This document shows positions 4,270-33,857 of a DNA stretch of 64,000 nucleotides, piece after piece (the stretch's first letter is position 1; every line of letters begins with the position of its first letter). The DNA is from Patescibacteria group bacterium (lineage in GTDB: Bacteria > Patescibacteriota > Patescibacteriia > 2-12-FULL-57-11): the NCBI GenBank assembly GCA_004297205.1, contig SCUL01000002.1:252594-316593 (forward strand). The letters run 5' to 3'. The notes beneath the pieces were generated by a model that made no database searches, was not told the DNA's origin, and saw only the letters and a list, made by a program, of their open reading frames with translations. The translations under genes were made by a program, and so were the position numbers.

Positions 4270-4923
4270 TTACTTCTTGCGGAGGAAGTAACAGACGCGC
4301 TTCGAGAACCATTTTGACGCAGGAAGCTTCACACCCGGCACGTACGGAACGAATCCGCCGTCGTATCGCACGTCCTCCCGCGTAAAGTTGACGAGGAAGG
4401 TCTTTGCAAAGACGTCACGGGTTAAAAAGGTGATATGGTTGTTGACCGTGTTGAAGCCCGTGATGTTATTCGAAACGAGGTATTGCACCCTCGCCCACAC
4501 GCTTTCTCCGCTCGGGAAGGAAAGGATGAATGACCCTCCTGGTTTCAACACCCGCGCCGCTTCGCGAGCAAATAAAAAGGGATTTTCCAGGTGCTCCATC
4601 ACCTGGATCGCGGTGACCACGTCGAATGACGCGTCCGCAAAGGGAAGCGCGTCGCGGGACAGATCCAGCACCCGTACCTTGTCCCGCAACGCCTCATGAC
4701 GCACGGAGTTCACGATGTCCGCGCCAAACACTCTTGCCGTTTCGTCACTCTCCTGGATCACCCGCATCGTGCCGCCGGAGCCGCAGCCCAAGTCAAGATA
4801 CGCCTGACCCTTCGGCTGACGGGCCAGGAACGCACGGAAGAACGGCCGCTTCGTCACCCACGCCTGGGAGAATGCGTACCGTTCATTTCCGTAGCTCCAT
4901 GTAGATGGCGCCGTGGTTGACAT
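4270..4923 (-). CDS. class I SAM-dependent methyltransferase
   Basis: LDLGCGSGG SAM motif, D..D acidic loop, Methyltransf_11-like; ATG start chosen at 4923 (M28 of track ORF; upstream part begins with GTG and overlaps next gene). Confidence 0.65.
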   Translation of the reverse strand: MSTTAPSTWSYGNERYAFSQAWVTKRPFFRAFLARQPKGQAYLDLGCGSGGTMRVIQESDETARVFGADIVNSVRHEALRDKVRVLDLSRDALPFADASFDVVTAIQVMEHLENPFLFAREAARVLKPGGSFILSFPSGESVWARVQYLVSNNITGFNTVNNHITFLTRDVFAKTFLVNFTREDVRYDGGFVPYVPGVKLPASKWFSKRVCYFLRKK

Positions 4924-4931
4924 AAGAGAGA

Positions 4932-5756
4932 TCAGGGTTTCCGTCCGACCAGGAAATGGGCCTGTGCCAATCGCGGACCCGTCTCGAGCGGATACTCCCG
5001 CCACAGGCGGCGAACGCGCGCGACGCCGCGATCCAGGTACGTGAGGGCGCTGTCCAGCGGAAGATAGACCGGCACGAACAGCGGGAACGGGTTGACGTGC
5101 GTGATCGTGAGATCCACGAACCCCGCCGCGGCGGCGTGCGCGGCGTATTGCTCCGCGGTGTCGTTGTTCCTGTAGTAATCCTTCTTCGGGGGCGTCGTTC
5201 GGAACGGACGGATCAGCCGCTTATAGACGGCGTTCAACGACTGCACCGAACGTTTCCCGGGGATGTTCAACGACACCATCAACCCGCCGGGGCGCAAGAC
5301 GCGCAGCGTCTCCGCCATCACCTCGCGGTAATCCTGGAAATGCTCCAAGAGTCCGATGGAACACGCGACATCGAACGCGCCGTCGGGAAAAGGCAAATGC
5401 CGTACGTCGGCCGCGACGAAGGTCCCCGTGCCGCCGTGGTGCGCGAAGTTCCTCCGGGAAAGATCGAGCGCGTCCTCGGAGAGGTCCACGAGCGTCACAT
5501 CGAGGCCGTCGTACGTGTTCAAGTACAGCCCCGCGGTCCCGCGGCCGCACCCGAGTTCGATCGCGTTCTTGAACCCCCGGCCGCGGATCGCGCGACGGAT
5601 GAAGTCGCTGTACCAAAACAGGGAAAACTGCCGCTGCGTCCGAGGCACGCCTCCCTTCGGGACGTAGACCGTCCATTCTTCGCGGTTCACGCCCCCAAGG
5701 CCGGCCATTTTCCACTTCGTTTCAAAAGCGGAGTTGTCCTGCGCAGGCGCGTTCAT
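4932..5756 (-). CDS. class I SAM-dependent methyltransferase
   Basis: IELGCGRGTAG...LVDLS...DVACSIGLLEHF motifs; real start MNAPAQD at 5756 (ATGA overlap with stop of upstream gene at 5753-5755); upstream part of track ORF is Arg-rich junk. Confidence 0.7.
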   Translation of the reverse strand: MNAPAQDNSAFETKWKMAGLGGVNREEWTVYVPKGGVPRTQRQFSLFWYSDFIRRAIRGRGFKNAIELGCGRGTAGLYLNTYDGLDVTLVDLSEDALDLSRRNFAHHGGTGTFVAADVRHLPFPDGAFDVACSIGLLEHFQDYREVMAETLRVLRPGGLMVSLNIPGKRSVQSLNAVYKRLIRPFRTTPPKKDYYRNNDTAEQYAAHAAAAGFVDLTITHVNPFPLFVPVYLPLDSALTYLDRGVARVRRLWREYPLETGPRLAQAHFLVGRKP

Positions 5757-7144
5757 ACCGACGCAGGGTACCGCCCGAGCGCGAACGCGGCAACCGCGCG
5801 GCCCAGGCGCTCGCCGGACTTTCCGTCGACCGTGCCGCAGAAGAATCGGACCAGCGACGCGCGCTCGCGCGCGCGCAGGGACGGGTCCGCGAGGAACGCG
5901 GCCACGGCCTCGTGCAGCCCCTGCTCGGAGCGCACCATCCACGGCGCCCCGCTCGCCACGACCCGGCGGTAGTACTCCGTGGTGTACCACTTCGCGATCG
6001 AATCCCCGAACGGCTTGCGCGCGTAGCCGTCGAAGGCGACGTTGATGACCGGTTTGTCGAATGCCGCCGCGTCGAGGGTCAGCGTCGAATTCGAGGTGAT
6101 CAGGAGGTCGCAGTGGCGGAGCAGGTTCGCCATGTGGCGGATCTGCGCGTCGCTGTAATCCCACTGGTCGCGGAAACCCGCGGACGGGGCGTAGGTGGCG
6201 TCGATGCGGACGTCCGGATCGGATGCGAACCGGGAAAACTTCTGTGCGTCTCCTTTGTAGATGAAATGCGGACGGATGAAGAGCTGGGCGGGCGCGCCAA
6301 AGCCTCCCGACCGGATCCCTTTGAGCAGCATGTCGACGATGTCCGGATCATGCTTCGCGATCTTCCCTTCCGAGGCGTACACGATCACTTTCTTCGCCGG
6401 ATCCAACCCGAGCCCGCGGAGGAACTCGGCGCGCGGCACGACGAGGCGCTCGTCGCGGTAGGCGTCGAACTGCGGAATCCCGGTTTCCACAACGTCGGCA
6501 TCCCGCATGTTCTGGAACGTCCGCGCCTCCTCCCGGGAATACGGCGCCCAGACGGCCATGCGGTCCGGTTTCACGCGGACGCTCATTTTGGATAGGTTGT
6601 CCCAAGACTTCGGCATGCCGATGATCGGGACGCCGCGTTGCCGCGCCTGCTTGGCCACGGACACGTCCATGTCTTCCATGATGCTGGTACAAAAAACCGC
6701 GACCGGGTCGTACCGGGCAAAAAGGTCGCCGTAGGTGCGGTCGCGTACGAGCGCCGCATCAAGGGCGCGCGCTGCTTCCTTGAGCCAGCCGATCGTACGC
6801 AACGGGCGGAAGACGATGCGCTTCGCCCAATAGCGCGCCGTGTTCGCTTCCTTGGGATCGTAAATGCCGTAGCGGTCGCGCATCTCGGTGCTTGCGTTGT
6901 ACACGAGCGCCTTGTGCAGGCCCACCAGCAGGCCGTCCAGCCAGCTCCAGCGCGGCTCGGACAACGGCGCGAACGTCACGCCGGGCGCGGAAAACTCCGC
7001 CAAGAATCGCGGGTCGTTCCAGGCGGGAGTGAGGACCACCAATCGCAGTCCGGACGCGCGCAGCACCCGGAGCACGTCCGTCTTCAAGATATTGCGCGCG
7101 GTGCCGCCGCGCGACACGGTGACGAAAAGGACGCGCTCGTTCAC
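5753..7144 (-). CDS. CDP-glycerol glycerophosphotransferase (TagB/TagF, Glyphos_transf) family protein
   Basis: C-terminal ...LLITSNSTLTLDAAAFDKPVINV... typical of Glyphos_transf; paralogue of 13546-14925. Confidence 0.55.
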   Translation of the reverse strand: MNERVLFVTVSRGGTARNILKTDVLRVLRASGLRLVVLTPAWNDPRFLAEFSAPGVTFAPLSEPRWSWLDGLLVGLHKALVYNASTEMRDRYGIYDPKEANTARYWAKRIVFRPLRTIGWLKEAARALDAALVRDRTYGDLFARYDPVAVFCTSIMEDMDVSVAKQARQRGVPIIGMPKSWDNLSKMSVRVKPDRMAVWAPYSREEARTFQNMRDADVVETGIPQFDAYRDERLVVPRAEFLRGLGLDPAKKVIVYASEGKIAKHDPDIVDMLLKGIRSGGFGAPAQLFIRPHFIYKGDAQKFSRFASDPDVRIDATYAPSAGFRDQWDYSDAQIRHMANLLRHCDLLITSNSTLTLDAAAFDKPVINVAFDGYARKPFGDSIAKWYTTEYYRRVVASGAPWMVRSEQGLHEAVAAFLADPSLRARERASLVRFFCGTVDGKSGERLGRAVAAFALGRYPASV

Positions 7145-7147
7145 AGG

Positions 7148-7909
7148 TTACGGGTGCGTTGCAGCGGGGTCGTAACTGGCGTATCCCTTCCAGGTGCCGA
7201 CGTCCACCGGCCGGTCGTGCCGCCGGAGCACGTAGCAGACCTTCTCGCTCAGCCGACGCTGCACCCATGCAACGGGGGGCAGGCGCAGCTTCCGACCCGC
7301 GAAACGGATGAACGGATTGCTGTAGTCCGTCCGCTCAAGAGTGAAATACGGCCCGACCATCTTTTGGAAAACGTCCGCGGTCTGGAACGAAATGTGGTTG
7401 TTGCGGAGGTTGAAACCGATCACGTTGCCTGAGCGCAGGAACCGCAGCCGGCTCGGCAGAGAAAAACCGTGCGGAATGGAGATCACGCACCGGCCACCGA
7501 CCTTGAGGACGCGGGCGAACTCGCGCACTGCGTGCCACGGGTTCTCTACGTGCTCCAGCATTTGCAGGGCAATCACGCCGTCGACGCTCCCGTCCGCGAA
7601 CGGCAGCCGGTCGTGGTTGGCGTCCCATTGCGTGAACGGAAGCGCCTGCGCGGCGGGTGAGGAACGGTAATCATGGATGTCGCACGGCTGGAGGTTGCGG
7701 AAGCCGAGCGACAGCAGCATCTCGGAGAGCGCTCCGCTGCCGCTGCCGATGTCCAGCACGCGGCCGGCCTTGGGAACGTCCCGCATCCACGAAGCCACCT
7801 TGTTCTCGCGGATGCCCCAAGAAGCCATGCCGGCGTAATGCGCACGCAGTTCGCCGGCCTTGGCACGGAGGGTTTCGGGATCGAGATGCGGATGGAAATG
7901 TTCGGCCAT
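7148..7909 (-). CDS. class I SAM-dependent methyltransferase
   Basis: VLDIGSGSGALS...DGVIALQMLEHV motifs; paralogue of 4270-4923. Confidence 0.7.
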   Translation of the reverse strand: MAEHFHPHLDPETLRAKAGELRAHYAGMASWGIRENKVASWMRDVPKAGRVLDIGSGSGALSEMLLSLGFRNLQPCDIHDYRSSPAAQALPFTQWDANHDRLPFADGSVDGVIALQMLEHVENPWHAVREFARVLKVGGRCVISIPHGFSLPSRLRFLRSGNVIGFNLRNNHISFQTADVFQKMVGPYFTLERTDYSNPFIRFAGRKLRLPPVAWVQRRLSEKVCYVLRRHDRPVDVGTWKGYASYDPAATHP

Positions 7910-7913
7910 ACCG

Positions 7914-8894
7914 TCACGCCGCGCCGGGCTCGCCCGGCAGCGATACGTTTTCGTCCCAATTCCACACCACGGCGCCCTGGGCGTCGCGCGAGGCGAAGCG
8001 GCCGCGGTAGTAGTCGCGGTTCAGCATTTCGGCATGGGAGAGCGGACGCGTTTCGCTTCCGAGCATCGCCGTGAATTCCGGAATCATCCGGCGCGCCTCG
8101 GCATGGCGGGCGTGGATCGGCAGCTTGGCGAACGCGGCGAGTTCCTTGAGCTCTTTCGGTCCGATGGACACCGGGCCGTCTTTGGTTTCCTCCGGCGGCA
8201 GGATCGTGAAGTGCCGTTCGATCACGTCGGCCCCCATCGCGAGCGCGGCAAGCGACGCCTTGATGCCGTCGCGGGCCACGAGGGTGTGGTCGCTGAACCC
8301 CACGGACGGCGTGAAGCGGCGCAGCCAGCGCATCCGGTTCAGGTGGGCCTCCGCGAGCGGTGTCGGGTAGATGCTCACGCAATGCAGAAACGAGAAGCTG
8401 TGGATACCCAACGCCTGGGCCGTCCGCTCGACTTCCCAGTCGTAGCACGTCCCGGTGGAAATGAAGAGGTGCGAAAAATGCTGCGCCAGCGAACGGATTA
8501 ACGGCAGCGACGCGCCGTCGAAGCTCGCGACCTTCACCTCTTTCCATCCCAGCGCGACCATGTCCTTCACGCGGCCGCGCGTGAAGATGGTCGTGAGCGG
8601 GCGGATCCCCACGCGCTGGCATTCATCGACGAACCAGGCGTAATCATCCATGGTCAGATCCATGGGACGAAGGCGGGCGTACTCCGCGCCGTAGGGGCGC
8701 TTGATCACCTGGACGACACCATGCTCGTCCGTGATCCCCTCCTCAAAACGGTCGCGTTTCACCAGGTCGTCGGCGAACGCGGTTTGTATCTTGGCATGAG
8801 TGGCGCCGGCCTCATGGGCGGCCGCGATCATCTCCCGGAGCGCGCCGCGGTCCCCCTTGTGGTTTTGGCAAAATTCGGCGATCAGCGTGGTCAT
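7914..8894 (-). CDS. nonulosonic (sialic/legionaminic/pseudaminic-type) acid synthase, NeuB family
   Basis: N-terminal IAEFCQNHKGD...AKIQT matches NeuB/PseI/LegI signature; C-terminal SAF-like region. Confidence 0.75.
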   Translation of the reverse strand: MTTLIAEFCQNHKGDRGALREMIAAAHEAGATHAKIQTAFADDLVKRDRFEEGITDEHGVVQVIKRPYGAEYARLRPMDLTMDDYAWFVDECQRVGIRPLTTIFTRGRVKDMVALGWKEVKVASFDGASLPLIRSLAQHFSHLFISTGTCYDWEVERTAQALGIHSFSFLHCVSIYPTPLAEAHLNRMRWLRRFTPSVGFSDHTLVARDGIKASLAALAMGADVIERHFTILPPEETKDGPVSIGPKELKELAAFAKLPIHARHAEARRMIPEFTAMLGSETRPLSHAEMLNRDYYRGRFASRDAQGAVVWNWDENVSLPGEPGAA

Positions 8895-8903
8895 ATTGCG
8901 GCG

Positions 8904-10073
8904 TCATGCTAGCACGGCATCGGCGATTTGGGAAGCCGCGTACCCGATTCCGTCGAGGGTGCCGAAGCGCTCCCGAAGCGCCGCATACCGCGCGTCAATC
9001 GCGGGCTGAAGCCGCTGCGCGGAAGCGATGGCCTCGGCCGGATCCGCACCCTGCCGCCAGATCGCGCCCAACTCCAAGGCCTCGACCGTCCGGTTGTTGT
9101 AGTAAATCTCAGGGAAGTCGTCCTCGAGGAACTCCGGACAGGCGAGCGGTTTCCGCGAAAGGTTCGCCAACCAGATCGTATTCCACGCCGCCCGCGCAAC
9201 CACCGACTGGATCGCCGGATGCGCGACGTATTTGGGATGGAGACGCACCGCGTTCGGGATTTCCGGTATTTCCTGGTTGACGTAGAGCCGCCATCCCTGT
9301 GCCGCCACGTGGCGATACAAGCGTCCCAGGTGCGGAATGCCGGACACGAGCACGTACACGCCCGGAGCGAGCTCTCCCTCGGTCACCGGCGCGGGCGGAT
9401 GGAACAGCGGCGGGGTCCGCCGTTCTTCGGGACGAAACGGCGCGCCGTCGGGGATCCAGGAAAACACGCTGGGTTCCGGCTGAAAGTAGATGTCCTGTCC
9501 GTCCTCCGCAGTGCGGGCGTTGTCCGCTGCTGCCGCGAGCAGGTCCGCGTCATAACGGCGGAATTGCGACTCGTCCAGGCTCTGGCGGAGAATGCGCTCC
9601 AGGTAGCCGATCGACGTGTAGAACGAGCGGATCCTCCCCATGCGGACGTTGGGATTGCGGCTGACGGAAAGGAAGAGTTCGTCCGGCGCAACCGTCACGG
9701 AAACGCCGTCGAGCGTGATCCCCGCAATGCGCTCGGCAAGATGGGCATCCACGGCGCGCTGGATCTCCGGGTACCGGCGCGCCAGCCGCTCAAGGGTGAT
9801 CGTGAAATCGCGACCGTCGTACAGCAGCGCGTCGAGGAGTTTTCCCAGCGCGGCATCCAGAACGAACAATCCGGGGTCCTTCTCCAATTCCGCCGAAAAA
9901 TCTTCCCGGAGCAGCCGCGGCAGCCGGTCGCCATAGACATGCGGAACGAGTATCCGGTACGTGACGTCCGGTTGAACGGCCGTGAGCCGTTCGCGGACGG
10001 CCAGCGCCAGGTCCACCGCGCGCAGCAACGGTCCGTTGCCGCAGCCGAAATTGACGACCAGATACCTGATCAT
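8904..10073 (-). CDS. hypothetical protein (possibly GT-B fold nucleotide-sugar hydrolase/transferase, PseG-like)
   Basis: 389 aa, N-terminal LVVNFGCGNGPLLRAVDLALAV Rossmann-like start; no confident family assignment from sequence alone. Confidence 0.4.
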   Translation of the reverse strand: MIRYLVVNFGCGNGPLLRAVDLALAVRERLTAVQPDVTYRILVPHVYGDRLPRLLREDFSAELEKDPGLFVLDAALGKLLDALLYDGRDFTITLERLARRYPEIQRAVDAHLAERIAGITLDGVSVTVAPDELFLSVSRNPNVRMGRIRSFYTSIGYLERILRQSLDESQFRRYDADLLAAAADNARTAEDGQDIYFQPEPSVFSWIPDGAPFRPEERRTPPLFHPPAPVTEGELAPGVYVLVSGIPHLGRLYRHVAAQGWRLYVNQEIPEIPNAVRLHPKYVAHPAIQSVVARAAWNTIWLANLSRKPLACPEFLEDDFPEIYYNNRTVEALELGAIWRQGADPAEAIASAQRLQPAIDARYAALRERFGTLDGIGYAASQIADAVLA

Positions 10074-10816
10074 GGCGTCATCCCCAGACGCTGCGCCATG
10101 GCGATGCGCGCCATTTCGAAATCGATCGCGCTGTCGATGTCGATGGCGTTGTCGGCGTCGACGATCATGCCCACGATGTTCTTCCCGCAGGTGGAATGCA
10201 GTTCAAGCACGGTGCGCGGGCGGATGACGGACAGGTACCCCAACGATGCGTACGCCTTGGGCAACGCCTGGCGCGGCGCGTTGTACGGCTCCGGGATGCC
10301 GTACACCGATTCCGGGATGAACGGCTGCAGCATGCCGCCGTCGGCGTCCAGGCGGTACGTCTTCATCGGGTGGTGCGGCGCTTTGGCTACGCAGCGCAGC
10401 GAATCGGCTTCCGGATGGGCCTGCAGCAGGGCGACGGCCCGCTCGATGTCGGCGGAGACGCGCAGCGGGCTGGTGGGCCGCAAGTGCACCAGCAGGTCCG
10501 GCATCTTTCCCTCGTTGTCCCGGAACCACGTCAGGGCGTGCTCCAGCACGGGCAAGTCGGGCGTCAGGTCCTGGGCGAATTCCGCGGGACGCAGGAAGGG
10601 CGTTTCCGCGCCGAACTCCCGCGCCACGGCGGCGATCTCTTCGCTGTCCGTGGAGCACACCAGCCGGTCGATCGACGGCGCGCTCTTGGCCGCCTCGATC
10701 GTCCAGGCGATCAGCGGTTTGCCGCAGAGATCCTTGATGTTCTTTTTGGGGACCGATTTTGAACCGCCCCGGGCGGTGATGAGGCCGTACACGAGCGGTT
10801 TCGCGGGCGAGGTCAT
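10070..10816 (-). CDS. CMP-nonulosonate (acylneuraminate-type) cytidylyltransferase
   Basis: GLITARGGSKSVPKKNI motif (CTP_transf_3); ATGA overlaps at both ends. Confidence 0.8.
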   Translation of the reverse strand: MTSPAKPLVYGLITARGGSKSVPKKNIKDLCGKPLIAWTIEAAKSAPSIDRLVCSTDSEEIAAVAREFGAETPFLRPAEFAQDLTPDLPVLEHALTWFRDNEGKMPDLLVHLRPTSPLRVSADIERAVALLQAHPEADSLRCVAKAPHHPMKTYRLDADGGMLQPFIPESVYGIPEPYNAPRQALPKAYASLGYLSVIRPRTVLELHSTCGKNIVGMIVDADNAIDIDSAIDFEMARIAMAQRLGMTP

Positions 10817-11766
10817 AGTGCGTTCTTCTTGCAGTGATCAATCACTTTTTGCGCAATGAACACCTGTGTCTTCTCAAGCGACTCGGCGGTCGTTCCCGCG
10901 ATGTGCGGCGTGATCAGCACGTGGTCGTGGTCGCGGGCGTACGCCACGAGCGGGCTGGTGCCCGCGCCGCTCCCCTCTTCCGCCGCCAGCACGTCGAGCG
11001 CCGCGCCGGCGACGGCGCCGGAGGCGAGCGCCTCCACCAGCGCCGCCTCGTCGATCACCCGTCCGCGCGCGGTGTTGACGACGATGGCGCCGGACTTGAG
11101 GCGTGCGATTCGCTCCCGTGACAGCAGGCCGACCGTGTCGTCCGCGAGCGGGACGTGCATGGAGACGACGTCTGACGCCGCGAGCAGCGCGTCGAAAGCG
11201 ACCGGCTCCGCGCCGCGCACGGTGATGTCCTCCGCGCTCAGGTGCGGGTCGTACGCCAGACAGCGCATGCCGAAGCCCCGGGCGATCCCCGCGACCGCCG
11301 TCCCGACGCGCCCGATCCCGACGATGCCGAGCGTCTTCCCCGACAGCTCGCGTCCCTGGAACGGGTCCTGTTCCCAGCGCCCGGCGTGCACCGCGGCCGC
11401 GGCGGCAGGGATGCGGCGCAGGAGGGCGAGCAGCAAGGCAAACGTGTGCTCGGGCGTGGCGCGCACCGTGCGCAGGAACGCGACTTCACCGCGCAAGCTG
11501 AGCACGGCGACGCCGCGGCGACCCGCCTCGGCGACGTCGATGTGGTCGAGGCCGGTCGTCGACGTGGCGACGACCTTCAGACGCGGCGCGGCGTCGAACA
11601 CGTCCCGCGTCACGCGGTGCGCGAGACGCACCACGAGGACGTCGGCGTCCGCCACGAGCGCGCGGATGTCGGCCGTACGCTCCGGGACGTACGCCACCTC
11701 CCCGAGCGTCCGCAGCAGGGCAAGCGCGGCCTGGCTGTATCCTGGTTCTGCCACGAGAATCCGCAT
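10813..11766 (-). CDS. D-isomer-specific 2-hydroxyacid dehydrogenase family (phosphoglycerate dehydrogenase-like)
   Basis: GKTLGIVGIGRVG NAD-binding motif, VVNTARG, catalytic region ...ITPHIAG; start at MRILVAEP (11766), upstream part of track ORF is junk. Confidence 0.7.
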   Translation of the reverse strand: MRILVAEPGYSQAALALLRTLGEVAYVPERTADIRALVADADVLVVRLAHRVTRDVFDAAPRLKVVATSTTGLDHIDVAEAGRRGVAVLSLRGEVAFLRTVRATPEHTFALLLALLRRIPAAAAAVHAGRWEQDPFQGRELSGKTLGIVGIGRVGTAVAGIARGFGMRCLAYDPHLSAEDITVRGAEPVAFDALLAASDVVSMHVPLADDTVGLLSRERIARLKSGAIVVNTARGRVIDEAALVEALASGAVAGAALDVLAAEEGSGAGTSPLVAYARDHDHVLITPHIAGTTAESLEKTQVFIAQKVIDHCKKNAL

Positions 11767-26780: not shown

Positions 26781-26781
26781 A

Positions 26782-27795
26782 TCAATTTCCCGGACGGATG
26801 TAGGCCGCCATCTTTTCGACGAGCGCGTCGAGGCCGTGCTTCTCCCGGACGATGCGGCGCAGGTCCTCGCGCGGCGTCGGCGTGAGCGCGCGGATGTAGG
26901 CGGCGACCGCCTCCGGCGTATCGTCGGCCGGCGCGCCCGGATACCCGATGGCCAGCGCGTGGCCGCGCGTGATGACCGGCGTGACGCCGCAGAACATGGC
27001 TTCGACGACGGTCTTGTCGACCGTATCCGGCACCATGTTCACGAGCACCTGGAAACGCGGATAGACGGAACGGAGCTCCGGCATCGGCACCGACCCCATG
27101 AAACGCACACGGCCTTTGAGCGCCGGCGATTCGGCGAGCGCGCGGAGTTCTTCGGCGTAGGCCGGATCCTGGCGCGGATCGAGCGGGCGGCCGTAGTGCG
27201 TCAGCGTGTATTCCGGCGGCAGGAGCGCCAGCGCCTTGAGCGTGATCTCCATGCGCTTGGAGCGCGAAATGCGGTGGACGGCCAGCAGGTGCGTGGCCGG
27301 CTCGCGCGCGGGCGGTTCCGGCACGTCCCAGAAGGCGGTGTCCACGCCGTGGCCGGTGACGACTTTGCGCGGATCGCCCTCGTACTGCGGCAGGCAGTCC
27401 TTCGTTGCGGCGAACATGCGCTTCACGATCTTGTCGCCGATCTTCAGGGAAAGCGGGCGCGTGTAGTGCGTGTACCAAAGGTACGTCGGGGTGCGGCGCA
27501 GGAACCAGTACCAGGCGCCGGCAGCCAGCCAGCGCGGATTCATGTGCACGAAGACGCGGTCGTGCGGAACGGTCAGCAGGATGCGTTGGAACTCGAGGAA
27601 CGACCGCCAGGTGGGCCAGCCCTTTTCCCGGCCCAGCGAGTGCACAGGAAACGGCAGGCTGTGCTCGCGCACCTCAAGCGCAATCACGGTCACGGCAAAG
27701 CCCGCCCGCGCAAAGGCCTTGGCCCAGAGGCTCGTGAACGCGAAGTCGTCGTCGCGTTCGTGGATCTTCGGGGTGATGAAGAGCAGGCGCAGCAT
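26782..27795 (-). CDS. glycosyltransferase (GT4/GT1 family)
   Basis: Start MLRLLFITPK at 27795 (TGATG overlap with WecB stop); C-terminal ...MGSVPMPELRSVYPRFQVLVNMV...EAMFCGVTPVI. Confidence 0.65.
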   Translation of the reverse strand: MLRLLFITPKIHERDDDFAFTSLWAKAFARAGFAVTVIALEVREHSLPFPVHSLGREKGWPTWRSFLEFQRILLTVPHDRVFVHMNPRWLAAGAWYWFLRRTPTYLWYTHYTRPLSLKIGDKIVKRMFAATKDCLPQYEGDPRKVVTGHGVDTAFWDVPEPPAREPATHLLAVHRISRSKRMEITLKALALLPPEYTLTHYGRPLDPRQDPAYAEELRALAESPALKGRVRFMGSVPMPELRSVYPRFQVLVNMVPDTVDKTVVEAMFCGVTPVITRGHALAIGYPGAPADDTPEAVAAYIRALTPTPREDLRRIVREKHGLDALVEKMAAYIRPGN

Positions 27796-28868
27796 CACTT
27801 CAGGAGAATATCGGCGATGCGTTCCGCGGCGTGTCCGTCCCAGAGTTCTGGGACGCGGCCTTTCTTCCAAGTGCCGGCAAGCACGCGCTCCACGGCAGCG
27901 CTAATCACGGCCGGATCATGGCCGACGATTTCGCTCGTCCCCACGTCGACCGTGATCGGCCGTTCCGTTTGTCCGCGCAGGGTGAGACACGGCACGCCGA
28001 GCGCGGTCGTCTCCTCCTGGAGCCCGCCGGAGTCGGTGACCACGGCTTTGGCCGCGCGCACCAGCGCCAGCATGTCGACGTAACCGAGCGGTTCGATGAT
28101 GCGCACGCCGGGCGCGGCGGCGAGGGCCGTTCCTTCCAAACGGTCGCGGACGCGGTGATGGACCGGATAGACGAGCGGGAGACGCTCGGCGGTCTTGGCC
28201 AGCGTTTCCGCGAGCGCGCGGAAGGATTCCGGATCATCCACGTTCTCCGGCCGGTGGAGGGTCAGCACGCCATAGCCGCCGGGCGTGAGGCCGAGGCGCG
28301 CCAACACGCCGCTCTCGGCGGCCTGCGGTTCAAGCCGGCGCAGCGTATCGATCATGACGTTCCCGACCAGGTGGACGCGCTCGTCGGGAATGCGTTCGGC
28401 ATGCAAATTGGCGACGCCCGACGGCTCGGTCACGAACAGCCAACGGCTGTGGTGGTCGGCGATCATGCGGTTGAGCTCCTCGGGCATCGGCCAGTGGAAG
28501 GAGCGCAAACCTGCTTCGACATGCGCCACCGGGACGCCTGCCAGCACGCCGGCCATCGCCGCGGCCGCGGTCGAAGTGACGTCGCCGACGACGACGAGCA
28601 CGTCCGGCGCCTGCGTCTTCAGGATCGGTACGAGCACCTCGACGATCGCCTTGCTTTGGACGATACGGTCGCCCGGGCCCACGCCGAGGTGGACGTCCGG
28701 CGCCGGCAGCCCGAGGTCGCGGAAAAAGACGTCCGACATCAACGGATCGTAATGCTGGCCGGTGTGGATGAAGGTGATCCGCGCGCCGCGCGCGGCGAGT
28801 GCCGCGCGCAGGGGGGCGACCTTCATGAAATTCGGCCGTGCGCCGGCCACGAGCGCGATGTGTTTCAT
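27795..28868 (-). CDS. UDP-N-acetylglucosamine (or UDP-diacetamido-uronate) 2-epimerase, WecB/WbpI family
   Basis: MKHIALVAGARPNFMKVAPL..., HTGQHYD, DSGGLQEE motifs; AAGGAG RBS 6 nt upstream of ATG 28868. Confidence 0.85.
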   Translation of the reverse strand: MKHIALVAGARPNFMKVAPLRAALAARGARITFIHTGQHYDPLMSDVFFRDLGLPAPDVHLGVGPGDRIVQSKAIVEVLVPILKTQAPDVLVVVGDVTSTAAAAMAGVLAGVPVAHVEAGLRSFHWPMPEELNRMIADHHSRWLFVTEPSGVANLHAERIPDERVHLVGNVMIDTLRRLEPQAAESGVLARLGLTPGGYGVLTLHRPENVDDPESFRALAETLAKTAERLPLVYPVHHRVRDRLEGTALAAAPGVRIIEPLGYVDMLALVRAAKAVVTDSGGLQEETTALGVPCLTLRGQTERPITVDVGTSEIVGHDPAVISAAVERVLAGTWKKGRVPELWDGHAAERIADILLK

Positions 28869-29590
28869 AACGGACTCCTTACGATAGGCCGTTCGGACGC
28901 CCGGGTCAAACGGCGAATCCTCCACAAGTCGCGAACAATGCCGAACAGCGCGCCAGCGCGAACGGTGGTCGTTGCATCATGGCGCCAACGAACCGGCAGT
29001 TCGATGATGCGCAACCCGGCGCGTCGCGCACGCGCGAGCACGTCAACATCGAACGCCCAGCCGTCGGTGGCGACGTCCTGAAAGAGCGCCGCGGCCGGCG
29101 CACGGAAACACTTGAAGCCGCACTGGGTGTCGCGGAACGGCAGACCGACGATCAGACGCACCAACAGATTGAACACGCGGCCGCTCTTCTCGCGCCACCA
29201 CGGCTGACGCGCCACGAGGTCGGCGCCGGTCACGGCGCGGGACGCGATGAGCACGTCGTGATCGGAAAGATACGGTCGGAATCCCTCGAACGCCTCCGGC
29301 TCGGTGGAGAGGTCGGCGTCCAAAAAGATGCGCCACTCCCCCGTTGCCGCGGCCATGCCGGCGCGCACTGCCGCGCCTTTCCCCCGATTCTGCGGCAGCC
29401 GAAGCAGGCGGATGCGCGGTTCGCGCGCTGCCGCTTCGCCAACGATGCGTGCCGTCGCGTCCGTGGAACCGTCGTCCACGATGACGATCTCCCAGTCCCC
29501 GAGACGGGCGGCGTACGCGGACACGCGCGCCAGGGCTTCGCCGATGGCGGCGGCTTCGTTGTATGCCGGGATGATGAAGGAGTACGTCAT
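28865..29590 (-). CDS. glycosyltransferase family 2 (polyprenol-phosphate sugar transferase-like)
   Basis: YSFIIPAYNE...VIVDDGSTDAT...FLDADL motifs; start at 29590 (ATGA overlap). Confidence 0.75.
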   Translation of the reverse strand: MTYSFIIPAYNEAAAIGEALARVSAYAARLGDWEIVIVDDGSTDATARIVGEAAAREPRIRLLRLPQNRGKGAAVRAGMAAATGEWRIFLDADLSTEPEAFEGFRPYLSDHDVLIASRAVTGADLVARQPWWREKSGRVFNLLVRLIVGLPFRDTQCGFKCFRAPAAALFQDVATDGWAFDVDVLARARRAGLRIIELPVRWRHDATTTVRAGALFGIVRDLWRIRRLTRASERPIVRSPL

Positions 29591-30627
29591 GTGCGTGCCA
29601 ACTTTTCCCACGCCGCGACGATACGGCGGGCGATCTCTGCGGCGTCCGGCAACGCAGCTGCGGCACGGCGGGCGTTCTCACCACGGCGGCGCGCTTCGTC
29701 CGGATGCGCCAGCGCATCGGCCAACGCGGCCGCAAACGCGGCTTCGTCTCCCGGCGGCACGACCCAGCCGCTCTCGCCGTCGACGATCACTTCTCCCGCA
29801 CATCCGACATCGGTCATGACGATGGCGCGTCCTGCAAGCGCGGCTTCGATGGCGAGTCGGCTCCAAGATTCGTGGAGTGAAGGGATGGCGATGATCCCGG
29901 CAGTGTCGACCGACGCATCGCGTGTCCATCCCTGGATGATAATGGGACGCTCAATGTGAGCGTGGTCCTTATCTTCTTTACCAATAACGCGATCGATCTC
30001 GTCTTGAATTGTTTTCTGTTCAGGACCACCGCCGCGTATGCGCAGCAAAGGATGTGGAAATTGTTTGCGTACTTGAGCAAATGCTCTCACGAGCATGGGG
30101 AGATTCTTCTCTGTCGTCAGACGACCATCATAACGGATCTCGTTCCAATAGATGGTCTCGGTGCCGATGGCCGGCATCTTGGGCGCAACGGGAATGATCG
30201 TGATCCGGTCCGTAGAAACGATTTCCTGCAGCGAACGTGCCAGACGCGCACTCACGACGCGCACGCCGTCGGCGCGGCGCAGCTGGAAACGCGCGAGCAT
30301 GAGCCGAAGCGGACGATGCCACGCTTCCGCCGCCCACGCAGGATTGAAAAAGTCGCCGTGCATTTGCAGTTCGAGTTTCGCGCCGCGCAGCCGCGCAATG
30401 AGCCAGCCGGCGAGGCCGGCCTCGAAGGGGTCCTGCGCGGTCACGACCCAACCGTGGCGCACCGTCGCGAGGCCGCGCCACAGGACGGACGCGAACCGCA
30501 TCGGCGATGCGAAGACGACCGTGACCTCCGCCCCGAGCGCGGCATACCCCGCGATCCGTTTCGCCGTCGGCGAACCAGGACGCACGGCGTCCGCATCGCG
30601 GCTGATCATGAAAACCTGCACGGGCAT
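29587..30627 (-). CDS. glycosyltransferase family 4 (GT4)
   Basis: ...AIPSLHESWSRLAIEAALAGRAIVMTDVGCAGEVIVDGESG (E-x7-E); start MPVQVFMISRD at 30627. Confidence 0.7.
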   Translation of the reverse strand: MPVQVFMISRDADAVRPGSPTAKRIAGYAALGAEVTVVFASPMRFASVLWRGLATVRHGWVVTAQDPFEAGLAGWLIARLRGAKLELQMHGDFFNPAWAAEAWHRPLRLMLARFQLRRADGVRVVSARLARSLQEIVSTDRITIIPVAPKMPAIGTETIYWNEIRYDGRLTTEKNLPMLVRAFAQVRKQFPHPLLRIRGGGPEQKTIQDEIDRVIGKEDKDHAHIERPIIIQGWTRDASVDTAGIIAIPSLHESWSRLAIEAALAGRAIVMTDVGCAGEVIVDGESGWVVPPGDEAAFAAALADALAHPDEARRRGENARRAAAALPDAAEIARRIVAAWEKLART

Positions 30628-30628
30628 A

Positions 30629-32884
30629 TCAGGGAACGTCGGACAGCGCGGCAACGAGCCCCTCCGTCATGCGCGCCACGGTGTACTGCGCGGCGGTGCG
30701 CTGGCCGGCCGCGGCCAGGCGCGCGGAAAGATCGGCGTCCTGCAGCAGGCGGACGACGGCCTCAACAAGCGCATCCACGTCGCCGTAGCGCACGACGAGC
30801 GCGTTCTCCTCGTGGCGCGCGACTTCCGCATTGCCACCCGCGTCGCTGGAGACGACCGGCGCACCGGCGGCGAGCGCTTCCACCAGCTGGTGCGAAAAAC
30901 CTTCATAACCCGTGTAGAGCACGAACACGCGCGCAGCCGCGGCGCGCGCCAGCACGTCGCCGTGCGGCAGACGGCCGGTCAGCGTTACGGCGTCCTTCAA
31001 TGCCAGACGCGCAATCTCCGCCTCCACGGCTGTGCGTTGCGGCCCGTCGCCGACGAGCGTCAAACGCGCGCCGGGAACGCGGGCGCGGATCGCGGGGAGC
31101 GCGGCAACGAGCTGTGCCATCCCCTTCCACGGCAGGAACCGTCCGGCGCTGAGGATCTCCGGCGCACGCGCCGCCAGCGCGGCGGCATCCGCCGCCGGCG
31201 GCAGTCCGTGAGCGTCAACGGCATTTTCCACCACGCGCACCCGCGTCTCCGGAACGCCCCACTGCCGAACGATGCCGGCAAGGTAATGGCTCGGCGTGAC
31301 GACGCGGGATGCGCGGCGTACCACGAACCGCTGGATGCGGCGCAACCGCTCCACGCCGGCGGCGTAGCGTTTCGACTGGAACGGATCGAGCAGGTCGGTC
31401 ACGCCGTGGCGCGACTGCCCCTGCTCCCAGGCATAGTCGCCGACGATCTTGATGGCAAAGGAGCGGCGCGCAAGCAGCGCGGCGAGCGCCGCAGGAAAAC
31501 CTGCCGAGACCGGATCCATGGCGAACACGACGCCGGTGCTGCGGGAACGGCGCAGGACGCGCCAGAAATACGCGAGGTGACGGACGCCGGGCGGCAGCGA
31601 GGATGAAACAACGGCGCGCGCCCCACCGGGCGGCGCAGGAATGGTCTTGGTGTCGCCGTAGGTGACGATGTCGACGCGCCAGCCGCGTGCAGACAGAATC
31701 GGGGCCACCGTGTTGACGTATGTTGCTGGCCCGCCGATGGCCGGCGGGAAAATGCCGGTCGCAAACAAGACGTTCTTGGACGTACCCAGACGTTCGTACA
31801 GGTCGGCGTACGACGGCATGATCTTCTCCCAATCGAACCGCGCCGCCGATGCCAACGATCCCGCCGCGAGACGGACGCGCAACGGTTCGTCAGAGAACAC
31901 GCGCATCAGTGCGGCGGCGAGGCGTTCAGGATTTTCGGCCGGCACAAGCACACCGCTCTCCCCGTCCGTAATGACGTCGGGAATGCCGCCGACGTTGGTG
32001 CCGACCGGCGGAACGCCGCAGGCCTGGGCCTCGATGAAGACGATGCCGAGTCCTTCGGCCAGCGACGGACAAGCGAAGACGTCGGCGGTGCGCAGGACGG
32101 CCAGCGCTTCGGCGTTGGGCAACGCGCCGCGGAACGTCACAGCTCCGGCGATCCCGAGTTCTTTGGCACGCGCTTCAAGCGCGGCGCGGTCGGCACCGTC
32201 GCCGACAAGGACCAGGTGCGCGTCAGGAACCGTCGTGCGGGTCCGCGCCAGCGCGTCGAGCAAATCACCCAGGCCCTTCTCCCAGGCCAGCCGCGCGATG
32301 CAAACGATGCGGTGGCGCACCCGCTCCTCCGGCCGTTGCGGCGCGATGCGCGAAAGATCGACGCCGTTCGCGATGACGGACACCCGCGCCGGGTCCGCAC
32401 CCAACCGCGCCGCGCGCGCGGCCAGGAAACCGCTGATGGCGGTGACGCGGTCGGGACCGGTATGGATCCGCCGCCACAGCCAACCGGGAATGCGCCGTTG
32501 TTTTTTGTCGCTGTCCAAGTCGCCGCTCTGCAACGTCAACACGCGACGCACGCGCGGCCGCAGGAGCCCGAACACCCACAGGGCGATGCCGGCATACGAT
32601 TCCATGACGGCGTGCGCGACGCGGGCCCGGATGCCGAGCGCGGCGAGCGGCGCCAGGATGCAGAAGAGCCACTTGTCGATCGGGTGCCCGATGCCGACCC
32701 GGCGGATCTCACCGAAGCCGCGGGTTTCGCGGGCCGGAACGCGGCGGGAGAGGCGGGACGTCAAAAGCACAAAGTGGTAGCGGTCGGAAAGACGGTCTAC
32801 CACTTCTTGCACGCAGCGTTCGGCCCCGCTCATCCACGGATCGTAGAAAGCGGAGAAGAGGATGATGGTGCGTTTCTCAGGCAT
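30629..32884 (-). CDS. tandem double glycosyltransferase (two fused GT4 domains)
   Basis: Two complete GT4 modules, each with PSLAEGLGIVFIEAQACGVPPV / YTGYEGFSHQLVEALAAGAPVV E-x7-E regions; start MPEKRTIILF at 32884. Confidence 0.7.
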   Translation of the reverse strand: MPEKRTIILFSAFYDPWMSGAERCVQEVVDRLSDRYHFVLLTSRLSRRVPARETRGFGEIRRVGIGHPIDKWLFCILAPLAALGIRARVAHAVMESYAGIALWVFGLLRPRVRRVLTLQSGDLDSDKKQRRIPGWLWRRIHTGPDRVTAISGFLAARAARLGADPARVSVIANGVDLSRIAPQRPEERVRHRIVCIARLAWEKGLGDLLDALARTRTTVPDAHLVLVGDGADRAALEARAKELGIAGAVTFRGALPNAEALAVLRTADVFACPSLAEGLGIVFIEAQACGVPPVGTNVGGIPDVITDGESGVLVPAENPERLAAALMRVFSDEPLRVRLAAGSLASAARFDWEKIMPSYADLYERLGTSKNVLFATGIFPPAIGGPATYVNTVAPILSARGWRVDIVTYGDTKTIPAPPGGARAVVSSSLPPGVRHLAYFWRVLRRSRSTGVVFAMDPVSAGFPAALAALLARRSFAIKIVGDYAWEQGQSRHGVTDLLDPFQSKRYAAGVERLRRIQRFVVRRASRVVTPSHYLAGIVRQWGVPETRVRVVENAVDAHGLPPAADAAALAARAPEILSAGRFLPWKGMAQLVAALPAIRARVPGARLTLVGDGPQRTAVEAEIARLALKDAVTLTGRLPHGDVLARAAAARVFVLYTGYEGFSHQLVEALAAGAPVVSSDAGGNAEVARHEENALVVRYGDVDALVEAVVRLLQDADLSARLAAAGQRTAAQYTVARMTEGLVAALSDVP

Positions 32885-33857
32885 GGCCGATGCGGAACCA
32901 ATCGTAGGTGCGTCGCAACCCTTCGTCGAGCGGCACCTGCGGCTCAAAGGCAAGGAGTTCCCGCATGCGCGTCACGTCCGGGCAACGGTAGCGCACCTCG
33001 ATGGCGCGTTCCGGTTCGTGCACGGGGACGAGCGGCTTGCCGGACAACACCGCGATTTTTTCCGCGAGTTCGTTGATGGTCGTCTGCCGCCCGCTGCCGA
33101 TGTTGAACGTCTTGCCGTTCGCCGCGTCCGCCAACAGCGCATGCACGCCCGCCTCGACGTTATCGCTGATGAAGACGAAGTCGCGCGTCGCCTTGCCATC
33201 GCCGAAGATGACCGGCGGTGCTCCGGCCAGGGCGCGTTTCATGAATATGCCGACGACGAAACCGTACGCCGACGCGTTCTGCCGCGGACCGTAGACGTTG
33301 AAGAAGCGCAGCGAGCAGCCCGGGAGTCCAAAACGCCGCCAGTAGTTGCGGACCATGTTCTCGCCGACGAGTTTGGTGAGCCCGTACGGATCGTCGGCGT
33401 TGACGTTGAGCACGCCCTCTTCGCGCTCCGGCAGTTCCACCGGTTCGCCGTAGGCTTCCGACGATGAGGCGAAAACGAACTTCTTGACGCGGTGGGCATG
33501 CGCGAGCGCCAGCAGGAACTTGATACCGTCGATGTCCTTGAACACTTCCAACGGACGTTCGATCACGATCCGGACGCCGACCACGGCGGCGTAGTGGAAG
33601 ACATAATCGATCTTGTGCGCGGAAAAAATCTGGGCGACTTCCTCGAAACGATTGACGTCCGCGCGTACGAAAACGAACTCCGGGTGTCGGCGCGCCTCCG
33701 CAAGGTTCTGATCGGTGCCGGTGCTGAGGTTGTCGACACCGACGACCCGCGCGCCCAACGAAAGCAGCCGGTCGACGAGATGCGACCCGATGAAGCCTGC
33801 GGCACCGGTGACAAGCACCGTGCTGCCCTGTAACGCTCGGTAGTCCACGTTGGTCAT
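32877..33857 (-). CDS. NAD-dependent nucleotide-sugar epimerase/dehydratase (GalE/UDP-GlcNAc 4-epimerase-like)
   Basis: VLVTGAAGFIGSHL Rossmann motif, YGLTK catalytic Y-x3-K, 326 aa; first gene of the minus-strand cluster. Confidence 0.8.
   Translation of the reverse strand: MTNVDYRALQGSTVLVTGAAGFIGSHLVDRLLSLGARVVGVDNLSTGTDQNLAEARRHPEFVFVRADVNRFEEVAQIFSAHKIDYVFHYAAVVGVRIVIERPLEVFKDIDGIKFLLALAHAHRVKKFVFASSSEAYGEPVELPEREEGVLNVNADDPYGLTKLVGENMVRNYWRRFGLPGCSLRFFNVYGPRQNASAYGFVVGIFMKRALAGAPPVIFGDGKATRDFVFISDNVEAGVHALLADAANGKTFNIGSGRQTTINELAEKIAVLSGKPLVPVHEPERAIEVRYRCPDVTRMRELLAFEPQVPLDEGLRRTYDWFRIGHA

Follow-up and report, generated by a model that had tools for sequence, protein, structure and literature searches.

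Gene content and layout of the locus

The locus described here lies on a 64,000-nucleotide stretch of contig SCUL01000002.1 (positions 252,594 to 316,593, assembly GCA_004297205.1) from a Patescibacteria group bacterium. The whole stretch is called the window, and positions are counted from its first letter. In the list of open reading frames (ORFs) of the window, 27 ORFs on the minus strand are chained across 4270-33857, and Pfam and NCBIfam placed 26 of them in families consistent with glycan synthesis, the exception being the gene at 8904-10073 (Table 1). The array is a real operon-like glycan-assembly locus, and around its NeuB-like synthase gene it contains a conserved cassette.

With the best start codons chosen, all 26 junctions between the genes measured -17 to +60 nt. 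Seven are ATGA overlaps of 4 nt with ATG starts, one may be a TGATG overlap and two are longer, one of 17 nt and one of 8 nt where the start of the double glycosyltransferase gene overlaps the upstream stop; the others are mostly gaps of 1-9 nt. Use of GTG or TTG starts would turn at most four further junctions into 4-nt overlaps. TGA is the stop codon in 25 of the 27 genes. The initial annotation of this DNA had described a co-directional, near-gapless array with stop-start overlaps of both kinds, and this was borne out.

Eight gene models are identical to NCBI proteins (TAK04870, 04872, 04874-04876, 04883, 04885, 04896), all encoded on a single contig of 855,898 bp, and the 389-aa product of the exceptional gene is 100% identical to locus tag EPO33_02650. 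One accession per gene fits the gene list if the accessions run consecutively. Each window protein that was looked up is a singleton at 90% identity clustering. The GC content of the window is 0.62-0.75, a range unusually high for a Patescibacteria genome, with 0.62-0.69 inside the cluster and 0.62-0.75 outside it; a comparison of the two gave no compositional sign of a foreign origin. A promoter-like site was seen on the minus strand at 33913-33885, ahead of the first gene.

Some predictions in and beside the array were discarded. The minus-strand ORF 33910-35052 is spurious, being free of domains and lying opposite a plus-strand glycosyltransferase gene. Two ARAGORN calls, tRNA-Gly at 4469-4548 (-) and tRNA-Arg at 34872-34965 (+), are false positives since both lie within GC-rich coding genes and no Rfam tRNA was found at the gathering threshold.

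The methyltransferases number eight, as had been claimed: six class I S-adenosylmethionine (SAM)-dependent enzymes and one TylF-type enzyme in the cluster, and a second TylF (258-1064) in the adjoining operon. They are not housekeeping enzymes: their matches to families of the UbiE/BioC/MenG type are all far under the cut-offs, and their genes lie within the operon. The count of seven glycosyltransferases, five of them GT4, was correct for seven catalytic modules, two GT2 enzymes and a double GT4 fusion; these modules, however, are carried by six genes, of which four are GT4/GT1-type. There are seven such genes if the 389-aa protein is included. The 2-hydroxyacid dehydrogenase, the CBS domain, the GNAT/FemAB-like protein and the short-chain dehydrogenase/reductase (SDR) had been overlooked.

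Table 1. Features of the window in order of position, with the matches on which each assignment is based.
Feature	Position	Strand	Evidence
Convergent five-gene operon	258-4226	+	Pfam
Class I SAM methyltransferase MT_a, last gene of array	4270-4923	-	PF08241 71.5 bits
Class I SAM methyltransferase MT_b	4932-5756	-	PF08241 74.8 bits; ATGA overlap
TagB/TagF-like GT-B transferase, paralog 1	5753-7144	-	PF04464 36.6 bits; NF046086 43.5 bits
Class I SAM methyltransferase MT_c	7148-7909	-	PF08241 65 bits
NeuB-like phosphoenolpyruvate (PEP)-condensing synthase, clade without SAF	7914-8894	-	PF03102 152.6 bits, cut-off 22.1
389-aa protein, GT-B fold	8904-10073	-	No Pfam/NCBIfam match; cassette member in CPR and Asgard loci
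CMP-sugar synthetase, CTP_transf_3, PseF/NeuA-like	10070-10816	-	PF02348 67 bits; PseF 142.5 vs cut-off 205.7
D-isomer 2-hydroxyacid dehydrogenase	10813-11766	-	PF02826 192.3 bits; PGDH-like 257.9 vs cut-off 454
CBS-domain-fused nucleotide-sugar 6-dehydrogenase	11768-13498	-	CBS + UDPG_MGDP_dh N, central, C; = TAK04876
TagB/TagF-like GT-B transferase, paralog 2	13546-14970	-	PF04464 24.9 bits; NF046086 26.8 bits
Wzx-like flippase, sole Wzx	14980-16353	-	PF01943 Polysacc_synt 41.3 bits
GT4 glycosyltransferase	16356-17489	-	PF13692 73.3, PF13439 37.7 bits
Class I SAM methyltransferase MT_d	17486-18211	-	PF08241 62.9 bits
GT2 glycosyltransferase	18195-19037	-	PF00535 47.9 bits; ATGA overlap
TylF-type O-methyltransferase	19034-19729	-	PF05711 150.2 bits
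GNAT/FemAB-like N-terminus + DegT-like fragment, 479 aa	19736-21175	-	PF13480 27.2, PF01041 30.5 bits
Gfo/Idh/MocA oxidoreductase	21179-22207	-	PF01408 101.6 bits
Class I SAM methyltransferase MT_e, between Gfo and DegT genes	22204-22938	-	PF13489 57.1 bits; weak NodS
DegT-family sugar aminotransferase, C3-type	22941-24068	-	PF01041 417.6 bits
Class I SAM methyltransferase MT_f	24129-24932	-	PF08241 49.6, PF13489 48.4 bits
AsnB-type glutamine-dependent amidotransferase	24936-26780	-	Asn_synthase 300 bits + GATase_7
GT-B glycosyltransferase, GT1-type C-terminal domain alone detected	26782-27798	-	PF13692 38.5, PF00534 28.6 bits
Non-hydrolysing UDP-GlcNAc 2-epimerase, WecB family	27795-28868	-	PF02350 319.5 bits
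GT2 glycosyltransferase	28865-29590	-	PF00535 117.1 bits; ATGA overlap
GT4 glycosyltransferase	29587-30627	-	PF00534 76.6 bits, PF13579
Double GT4 fusion	30629-32884	-	Glyco_transf_4 x2, Glycos_transf_1 x2 (254 bits)
NAD-dependent sugar epimerase/dehydratase, SDR, GalE/TviC-like; first gene	32877-33857	-	PF01370 196.6 bits
GT4 glycosyltransferase, divergent	33913-35031	+	PF13692 93.2, PF13439 88.6 bits
Three tandem Wzy_C + TPR membrane proteins	35015-41615	-	PF04932 63.8, 67.6, 73.2 bits; TPR matches
1289-aa Thr/Ser/Gly-rich protein	41746-45615	-	Signal-peptide-like N-terminus; no Pfam match

A conserved cassette around a synthase without SAF

The NeuB-like gene and the CTP_transf_3 gene had been read as a nonulosonic acid branch. 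The NeuB barrel and CTP_transf_3 family assignments hold but the link to a known pathway does not. Against TIGR03569 (NeuB) the synthase scored 138.7 bits where the cut-off is 399.65, and against TIGR03586 (PseI) 114.7 bits where it is 340.25. No Pfam match to the SAF domain (PF08666) was obtained, and the protein stops about 30 residues past the strand 'YRGRF', which in the alignment falls at the beginning of the C-terminal region of SpsE. None of the partner genes NeuC, PseB/C/H/G or LegB/C/H/G was found among the 27 cluster genes with Pfam and NCBIfam. Given scores this far under the cut-offs, a protein without SAF and no precursor partner genes, the gene, as judged by profile comparison, is not a NeuB, PseI or LegI equivalog. 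The motifs IAE, K-x-Q, K-V-x-S, STG, HC-x-x-YP, SDH and ERH align with those of N. meningitidis NeuB (1xuu) and SpsE (1vli), and in a 28-sequence alignment of the clade their general forms (IxE, K-x-Q, K-[IV]-x-S, STG, HC-x-x-YP, SDH, E-[KR]-H) are invariant. We take these motifs to have catalytic and metal-binding roles, and by them the enzyme is predicted to be catalytically intact.

Homologs of the NeuB-like protein form a tight clade of proteins of ~317 aa, 47-79% identical, from the candidate phyla radiation (CPR), Chloroflexota, Thaumarchaeota, Asgard archaea and others. The databases give them generic names only, namely 'general stress protein', 'sialic acid synthase SpsE' and 'N,N'-diacetyllegionaminate synthase'. 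When one genome for each GTDB species was scanned with a sequence pattern, 192 relatives were obtained, among them one record that is not a metagenome-assembled genome (MAG), Flavobacteriaceae bacterium PRS1 (locus L042). The best 80 loci, 47-69% identical to the window protein, come from CPR bacteria, Chloroflexota, Thaumarchaeota, Asgard and other archaea, Bacteroidota, Planctomycetota, Nitrospirota and proteobacteria. Second, canonical NeuB copies within the same loci are merely 27-33% identical.

Neighbours within ~7 kb of the NeuB-like gene were counted in these best 80 of the 192 loci in two independent ways, by tblastn searches with the proteins of the window and by clustering all ORFs against one another. 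The most frequent are a CBS-fused nucleotide-sugar dehydrogenase (64-65/80) and CTP_transf_3 (63-74/80), and the former is mostly accompanied by the latter. A D-2-hydroxyacid dehydrogenase is found in 32-34 loci, a TagF-like protein in 32 (29 of which also have the CBS-dehydrogenase), a HAD hydrolase in 28, an SDR in 26, a class I methyltransferase in 24 and a homolog of the 389-aa protein in 23, followed by a ManC-like nucleotidyltransferase (16, always with HAD), DegT (8), AsnB (7) and WecB (2). In nine loci, from Thaumarchaeota (L031, L033, L043, L044, L047, L051, L053, L055 and L070, e.g. L051:10943-12907), CTP_transf_3 is fused to a LarA-like domain and directly follows the NeuB-like gene; the top match of that domain is the nickel-dependent (nickel-pincer) malate racemase, under its cut-off. 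The 2-hydroxyacid dehydrogenase and the LarA-like fusion share none of the 80 loci. As they never occur together, these two unrelated alpha-hydroxy-acid enzymes fill the same slot.

The CBS-dehydrogenase had been assigned as a WbpA-type enzyme to a Wbp branch. It scored 335.6 bits against TIGR03026 (cut-off 189.8), its PDB matches include CalS8 (220 bits), a UDP-ManNAcA dehydrogenase (193 bits) and 4o9k, and its top equivalog matches are UDP-ManNAc dehydrogenases and not WbpA-type enzymes. Because it is fused to CBS, stands beside the NeuB-like gene in unrelated phyla and is elsewhere fused to the GT-B protein described below, the dehydrogenase belongs with the NeuB-like gene and the Wbp assignment was abandoned. 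The main competing explanation is that it merely supplies a uronic-acid acceptor, like WecC in Tannerella forsythia (PMC6120980).

By analogy with the CBS pair of KpsF-type arabinose-5-phosphate isomerase, which presumably binds CMP-Kdo, the CBS part of this dehydrogenase could serve feedback control.

The 389-aa protein shares words with 22 homologs, none of which has a Pfam domain, and HMMER placed 277 representative clusters in its family at E <=0.001 among 1.84 billion representative proteins. An AlphaFold (AF2) model made from the 22-sequence alignment had a predicted local distance difference test (pLDDT) of 92 and a predicted template-modelling score (pTM) of 0.92. Foldseek matched this model to GT-B enzymes of the GT1 family (E ~1e-9, TM 0.5-0.59, 12-16% identity); the protein is thus predicted to have the GT-B fold. 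One distant member of the family matches Glyco_tran_28_C, the Pfam domain covering PseG and MurG. In one genome (GCA_016215315.1, JACRKG010000019.1) a natural fusion of 985 aa, P0164 (L084:8001-10958), joins a GT-B domain of this family to CBS and a full dehydrogenase. The gene order there is CTP_transf_3, NeuB-like (48% identical to that of the window), the fusion, GT4 and Wzx. The fusion suggests that within this pathway the GT-B protein and the dehydrogenase share one nucleotide sugar as substrate.

The closest relatives are loci L082 and L083, with NeuB-like proteins 72-78% identical to that of the window. Their order is TagF-like, AsnB, methyltransferase, (TagF-like), CBS-dehydrogenase, 2-hydroxyacid dehydrogenase, CTP_transf_3, GT-B, NeuB-like and methyltransferase, and their five core proteins are 51-85% identical to those of the window. 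An AsnB gene precedes the cassette in these two loci and in L002, which is likewise among the closest relatives. The methyltransferase MT_c keeps its place beside the NeuB-like gene in L003 (50% identity) and L082 (53%). The cassette, made up of the CBS-dehydrogenase, the GT-B protein, the NeuB-like synthase, a 2-hydroxyacid dehydrogenase or LarA-like racemase and the CMP-sugar synthetase, is an uncharacterised, widely shared set of five genes for a sugar resembling sialic acid, and no ulosonic acid pathway so far described has this gene set. Literature searches, whose coverage was incomplete, gave no published description of it, and a prior description is possible.

Neither L082 nor L083 conserves 14980-33857, from Wzx to the double GT4. 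Since the cassette is kept and this half is not, the island consists of a conserved core and a variable region, a mosaic that is usual for surface-glycan loci. The same pattern could mean that at least two independent glycan systems are merely co-transcribed, namely an ulosonate cassette with its own acceptor (e.g. pilin or lipid) and a strain-specific heteropolysaccharide. Just the genes at 5753-14970 and 258-4226 are kept in the closest relatives, and the three different Wzy_C-TPR genes beyond the array could serve different glycans or acceptors. However, the junctions are tight and overlapping throughout, with internal gaps <=60 nt, there is a single Wzx gene, and WecB and AsnB of the variable half plausibly feed the cassette. 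We therefore regard independent systems as improbable and prefer one system with a core and a variable part.

Further genes were seen around some relatives of the cassette. Beside it in L082 (13025-18281) are an NTP_transf_3::DHQ_synthase-like fusion, an SDR, an APH-type kinase, an NTP_transf_3 and a CDP-OH_P_transf-like gene, which may form a CDP-activated cyclitol or polyol pathway. In a Chloroflexia MAG (L001/L017:12660-20592) the cassette is followed by a sulfate adenylyltransferase/APS kinase fusion, a second CTP_transf_3, a 634-aa NeuB-SAF-AP_endonuc_2 fusion and a KpsC/KpsS-type Capsule_synth protein, and a sulfotransferase gene lies upstream. This set hints at a sulfated glycan with two ulosonic acids.

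The variable half, the TagB-like pair and the flanking genes

In the variable half, two claims of single-gene function were upheld by curated cut-offs: the WecB-family 2-epimerase scored 269.9 bits against TIGR00236 wecB (cut-off 210.15; NeuC just 48.4 bits) and the AsnB-type amidotransferase 451.9 bits against TIGR01536 (cut-off 267.1). The Wzx-like flippase was also retained. The top NCBIfam matches of the SDR are GalE (167.6 bits) and TviC (152.8 bits), both under the cut-off. The 479-aa protein, TAK04883, is the sole acyltransferase-like gene product of the cluster; NCBI names it 'GNAT family N-acetyltransferase' and it is a candidate N-acyltransferase.

The Gfo/Idh/MocA and DegT genes had been described as WbpB-like and WbpE-like. 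For the first the family domain is present, but no WbpB/WlbA-named chain was seen among its 44 best PDB matches, the top ones being 3c1a and 7bvj. Its top NCBIfam match is the archaeal UDP-GlcNAc 3-dehydrogenase, at 135.6 bits against a cut-off of 450, and from these matches it is a candidate nucleotide-sugar 3-dehydrogenase. The DegT protein does match WbpE at 281 bits but is closer to the C3-aminotransferases DesV (2oga, 371 bits) and QdtB (330 bits), and it is of the C3-aminotransferase type. The methyltransferase between the two genes, MT_e (244 aa, TAK04885), is a candidate N-methyltransferase. A hexapeptide-repeat domain, as expected of a WbpD-type acetyltransferase, was found by Pfam in none of the 27 cluster proteins. 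The pair thus looks like one that yields a 3-amino sugar, N-methylated or N-acylated, and not the WbpABDEI product.

The initial annotation had concluded that two canonical pathways are merged here, a Neu/Pse/Leg branch and a WbpA/B/D/E/I route to UDP-2,3-diacetamido-2,3-dideoxy-mannuronic acid that is amidated by AsnB. Its family-level matches were right (NeuB, CTP_transf_3, UDPG_MGDP_dh, GFO_IDH_MocA, DegT, Epimerase_2 and Asn_synthase) and the WbpE match is a strong one. However, the NeuB-like and PseF-like proteins fall under the equivalog cut-offs, the former without SAF; PseB/H/G, LegB/H/G and NeuC genes are absent from the cluster and its WecB is non-hydrolysing; the CBS-fused dehydrogenase travels with the NeuB-like gene across phyla; and both a WbpD-type gene and a WbpB/WlbA-named match for the Gfo protein are wanting, as given above. 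A merger of the two canonical pathways is thus very unlikely.

Two genes on either side of the cassette had been called TagF-like. Both match PF04464, if marginally, but CMP-sugar transferases are the more likely function. They are 33% identical over their full length; the PF04464 match of the first covers profile positions 143-365 and the second has no individually significant stretch. A PDB sequence search gave no significant match to solved TagF or TarL (TarL E = 0.22). The TagB-domain proteins BFO_1060 and Tanf_01245 are proven transferases of Pse/Leg derivatives onto ManNAcA in the T. forsythia O-glycan (PMC5420450). With this precedent and the association with the cassette, the paralogs are probably, by analogy, CMP-sugar (CMP-ulosonate) transferases and not glycerophosphate polymerases.

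If the paralogs were polymerases after all, the product could be a wall-anchored, teichoic-acid-like polymer attached to peptidoglycan and not to protein. The PF04464 matches of both paralogs fit this, as does the adjoining operon with its cytidylyltransferase-like and CDP-alcohol-transferase-like genes, which is co-directional with the cassette in L083. CPR bacteria are generally held to be monoderm. Teichulosonic acids, phosphate-free polymers of Kdn, are known from monoderm cell walls (PMC7831098; PMC11481543). Set against this, the Pfam matches are marginal and the similarity to TagF/TarL is not significant, neither an LCP ligase nor TagO/TagA-like genes were found in the window, and Wzx with Wzy_C points to a Wzx/Wzy-type or ligase route. 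We consider a wall polymer unlikely and retain the CMP-sugar transferase assignment.

The convergent operon at 258-4226 encodes a TylF methyltransferase, a membrane protein (weak CDP-alcohol phosphatidyltransferase match), NTP_transf_3, an NT5C-like protein and a protein with a weak DUF6206 match; it looks like a pathway for a CDP-activated alcohol or head group. In L083 the cassette runs on co-directionally into two TylF genes, a CDP-OH_P_transf::NTP_transferase fusion, NT5C and an unannotated gene. These counterparts are 40-62% identical to the window genes, the second and third of which are fused there. The operon is functionally linked to the island.

No Wzy_C gene lies inside 4270-33857 and three lie just beyond it. 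Their products (734, 785 and 729 aa) share ~31% identity, and homologs come after the NeuB/CTP_transf_3 pair in CPR loci L057, L063, L068 and L069; their sequences fit polymerase, ligase and O-OTase roles without distinguishing between them. The 1289-aa protein, predicted to be secreted, may be an S-layer protein or a surface glycoprotein that accepts the glycan. Its gene and the next ones, for a DUF5667 protein and for an ECF sigma factor, occupy 41746-47434 on the minus strand, and the latter two may be a sigma/anti-sigma pair controlling the 1289-aa protein.

Farther along, a GHL15 glycoside-hydrolase-like protein with FG-GAP repeats is followed by two further GT4 genes (52504-57084, minus strand), by which the glycan-related region reaches well past the cluster. 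The minus-strand ORF at 57210-62681 (1823 aa) is a giant Cys-rich repeat lipoprotein, unexpected in a CPR genome. It has a lipobox-like N-terminus (LLGIFSGC), a composition of 15% Gly, 12% Cys and 11% Asp, many 'CDGxDNDCDGxxDE' repeats, a Cu-binding_MopE match (302.8 bits) and, at the DNA level, units of 366-369 bp in tandem. The plus-strand ORFs at 57-62 kb, favoured by GC3, are wrong, the real gene being that of the MopE-repeat protein.

A proposed route and its relation to known systems

We favour the interpretation, with a probability of about 60%, that the genes form one long operon, with a conserved ulosonate module and a variable module, whose product is a lipid-linked surface heteroglycan, acidic and heavily methylated. 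A methylated, amidated, acidic heteroglycan had been predicted before and remains a reasonable expectation. Module A (5753-14970) comprises the CBS-dehydrogenase, 2-hydroxyacid dehydrogenase, CMP-sugar synthetase, GT-B protein, NeuB-like synthase and a methyltransferase, flanked by the TagB-like paralogs. Module B (14980-33857) comprises Wzx, six glycosyltransferase genes, the putative 3-amino-sugar pair, WecB, AsnB, the SDR and four methyltransferases (three class I and one TylF).

The gene families, the operon layout, the motifs kept by the synthase, the conservation of the cassette, its one fusion of GT-B protein and dehydrogenase and the alternation of 2-hydroxyacid dehydrogenase and LarA-like domain are observed; the substrates, the order of steps, the sugar and its acceptor we infer as follows. 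The CBS-dehydrogenase would oxidise a nucleoside diphosphate (NDP)-hexose to an NDP-uronate, the substrate here probably being UDP-ManNAc from WecB. The GT-B protein would process the nucleotide sugar, with a PseG-like release of the free sugar, and the NeuB-like enzyme would condense that sugar with PEP. The product could then be tailored by the 2-hydroxyacid dehydrogenase and the methyltransferase, activated with CTP and transferred as CMP-sugar by the TagB-like paralogs. In module B the putative 3-dehydrogenase and C3-aminotransferase would make a 3-amino sugar, to which an N-methyl or N-acyl group would be added. The other glycosyltransferases, methyltransferases and amino-sugar enzymes would complete the lipid-linked glycan, Wzx would flip it and the adjacent Wzy_C-TPR proteins would polymerise or ligate it, most plausibly onto the neighbouring 1289-aa surface protein.

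Several observations weigh against this scheme. None of the five biosynthetic cassette proteins reaches a curated equivalog cut-off, and the PF04464 and NF046086 matches of both TagB-like genes are weak (NF046086 is the BFO_1060 family, with a cut-off of 200). The rarity of WecB beside the cassette means that the substrate of the dehydrogenase is not generally UDP-ManNAc. In the 80 loci the GT-B protein never co-occurs with the ManC-like and HAD pair of other lineages, which the proposed route leaves unexplained, although the two might be functional alternatives. The fusion of GT-B protein and dehydrogenase also fits the making of an NDP-uronate and its transfer. Among the window ORFs scanned there was no initiating phosphoglycosyltransferase (Bac_transf, Glycos_transf_4), Wzz or LCP ligase, and it is by its adjacency that the 1289-aa surface protein is proposed as acceptor.

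The cassette product might be a structurally new CMP-activated acidic sugar, a 3-deoxy-non-2-ulosaric (dicarboxylic) acid, a suggestion that is tentative and has the odds against it. An NDP-hexuronate would be made, released and condensed with PEP to give this acid, whose distal C8-OH/C9-COOH end is an alpha-hydroxy acid that the 2-hydroxyacid dehydrogenase could oxidise or the LarA domain epimerise. Such an end would explain why a 2-hydroxyacid dehydrogenase or a racemase is present in the cassette. In the present genome AsnB might also amidate the product, which could be methylated as well. The route is compatible with the evidence and would be the most economical chemistry that uses every conserved cassette enzyme. 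Kdn, as in Bacteroides or Streptomyces, was considered as another possible product of the cassette.

The cluster as a whole is an ordinary, unsurprising kind of locus. The closest described system is the protein O-glycosylation cluster of T. forsythia, 27 kb in length, with Wzx, a nonulosonic pathway (pseBCFHGI or leg genes), wecB/wecC, asnB, three methyltransferases (mtfJOY) and five glycosyltransferases (gtfSMILE) (PMC6120980). The two are alike in size and polycistronic layout and in having Wzx, a CMP-ulosonic pathway, TagB-like transferases, WecB with a WecC-type dehydrogenase, AsnB, methyltransferases and GT-A and GT-B enzymes. In T. forsythia the S-layer proteins carry the product, an acidic glycan with methyl and amide groups. 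The window differs in being without PseB/C/H/G/I or Leg equivalogs, in its SAF-less synthase and CBS-fused dehydrogenase, and in its TagB-like proteins, which score 43.5 and 26.8 bits against the BFO_1060 cut-off of 200. It adds the 2-hydroxyacid dehydrogenase, the novel GT-B protein and the 3-amino-sugar pair, it has eight methyltransferases against three and the host is a CPR bacterium.

With the Neu/Pse/Leg pathways the cassette shares a NeuB-fold PEP-condensing synthase with its motifs, CTP_transf_3 and a GT-B protein at the position of PseG. Unlike in those pathways, the synthase is SAF-less and ~30% identical to canonical NeuB/PseI, the trio of 4,6-dehydratase, aminotransferase and acetyltransferase is missing, the CBS-dehydrogenase is an obligate companion and about half of the loci have a 2-hydroxyacid dehydrogenase or LarA-like racemase. 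The P. aeruginosa WbpA/B/D/E/I, archaeal and GnnA/GnnB routes resemble the window in placing Gfo near a C3-type DegT and, further, in a WecB-family epimerase and a 6-dehydrogenase. In the window, however, the WbpD-type acetyltransferase is lacking, a methyltransferase sits between Gfo and DegT, the Gfo protein is under the archaeal UDP-GlcNAc 3-dehydrogenase cut-off and the 6-dehydrogenase sits in the other module.

The slg clusters for S-layer glycans of Gram-positive bacteria, with the Wzy_C-type O-oligosaccharyltransferase WsaB, and the PglL/PilO O-OTases presumably offer a further parallel in Wzy_C proteins beside glycan genes and a large secreted protein, in methylated residues and in a monoderm-type host; the window differs in its three tandem Wzy_C proteins with C-terminal TPR and in having neither rml genes nor an ABC transporter. 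The teichulosonic acid of Streptomyces is likewise an ulosonic-acid-containing, methyl-substituted wall polymer of a monoderm, though the window shows no LCP ligase.

CPR bacteria, or Patescibacteria, are host-attached organisms with very small genomes, and we know of no experimental work on their surface glycans. Here ~30 kb of an 856-kb contig, ~3.5%, is given to one glycan operon, and the share is larger with the flanking glycosyltransferase, Wzy_C and surface-protein genes, suggesting an important role for the glycan in the cell. Of moderate interest are the cassette, which makes a more general point than the cluster does, and the fact that so small a genome carries it. Mass-spectrometric surveys have found unexpectedly diverse ulosonic acids in environmental microbes (PMC8157484), and the cassette offers concrete candidate genes for one such acid. 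If its product is indeed a new acidic sugar, that sugar would be widespread, yet overlooked, on the surfaces of CPR bacteria, Chloroflexota, ammonia-oxidising archaea and Asgard archaea.

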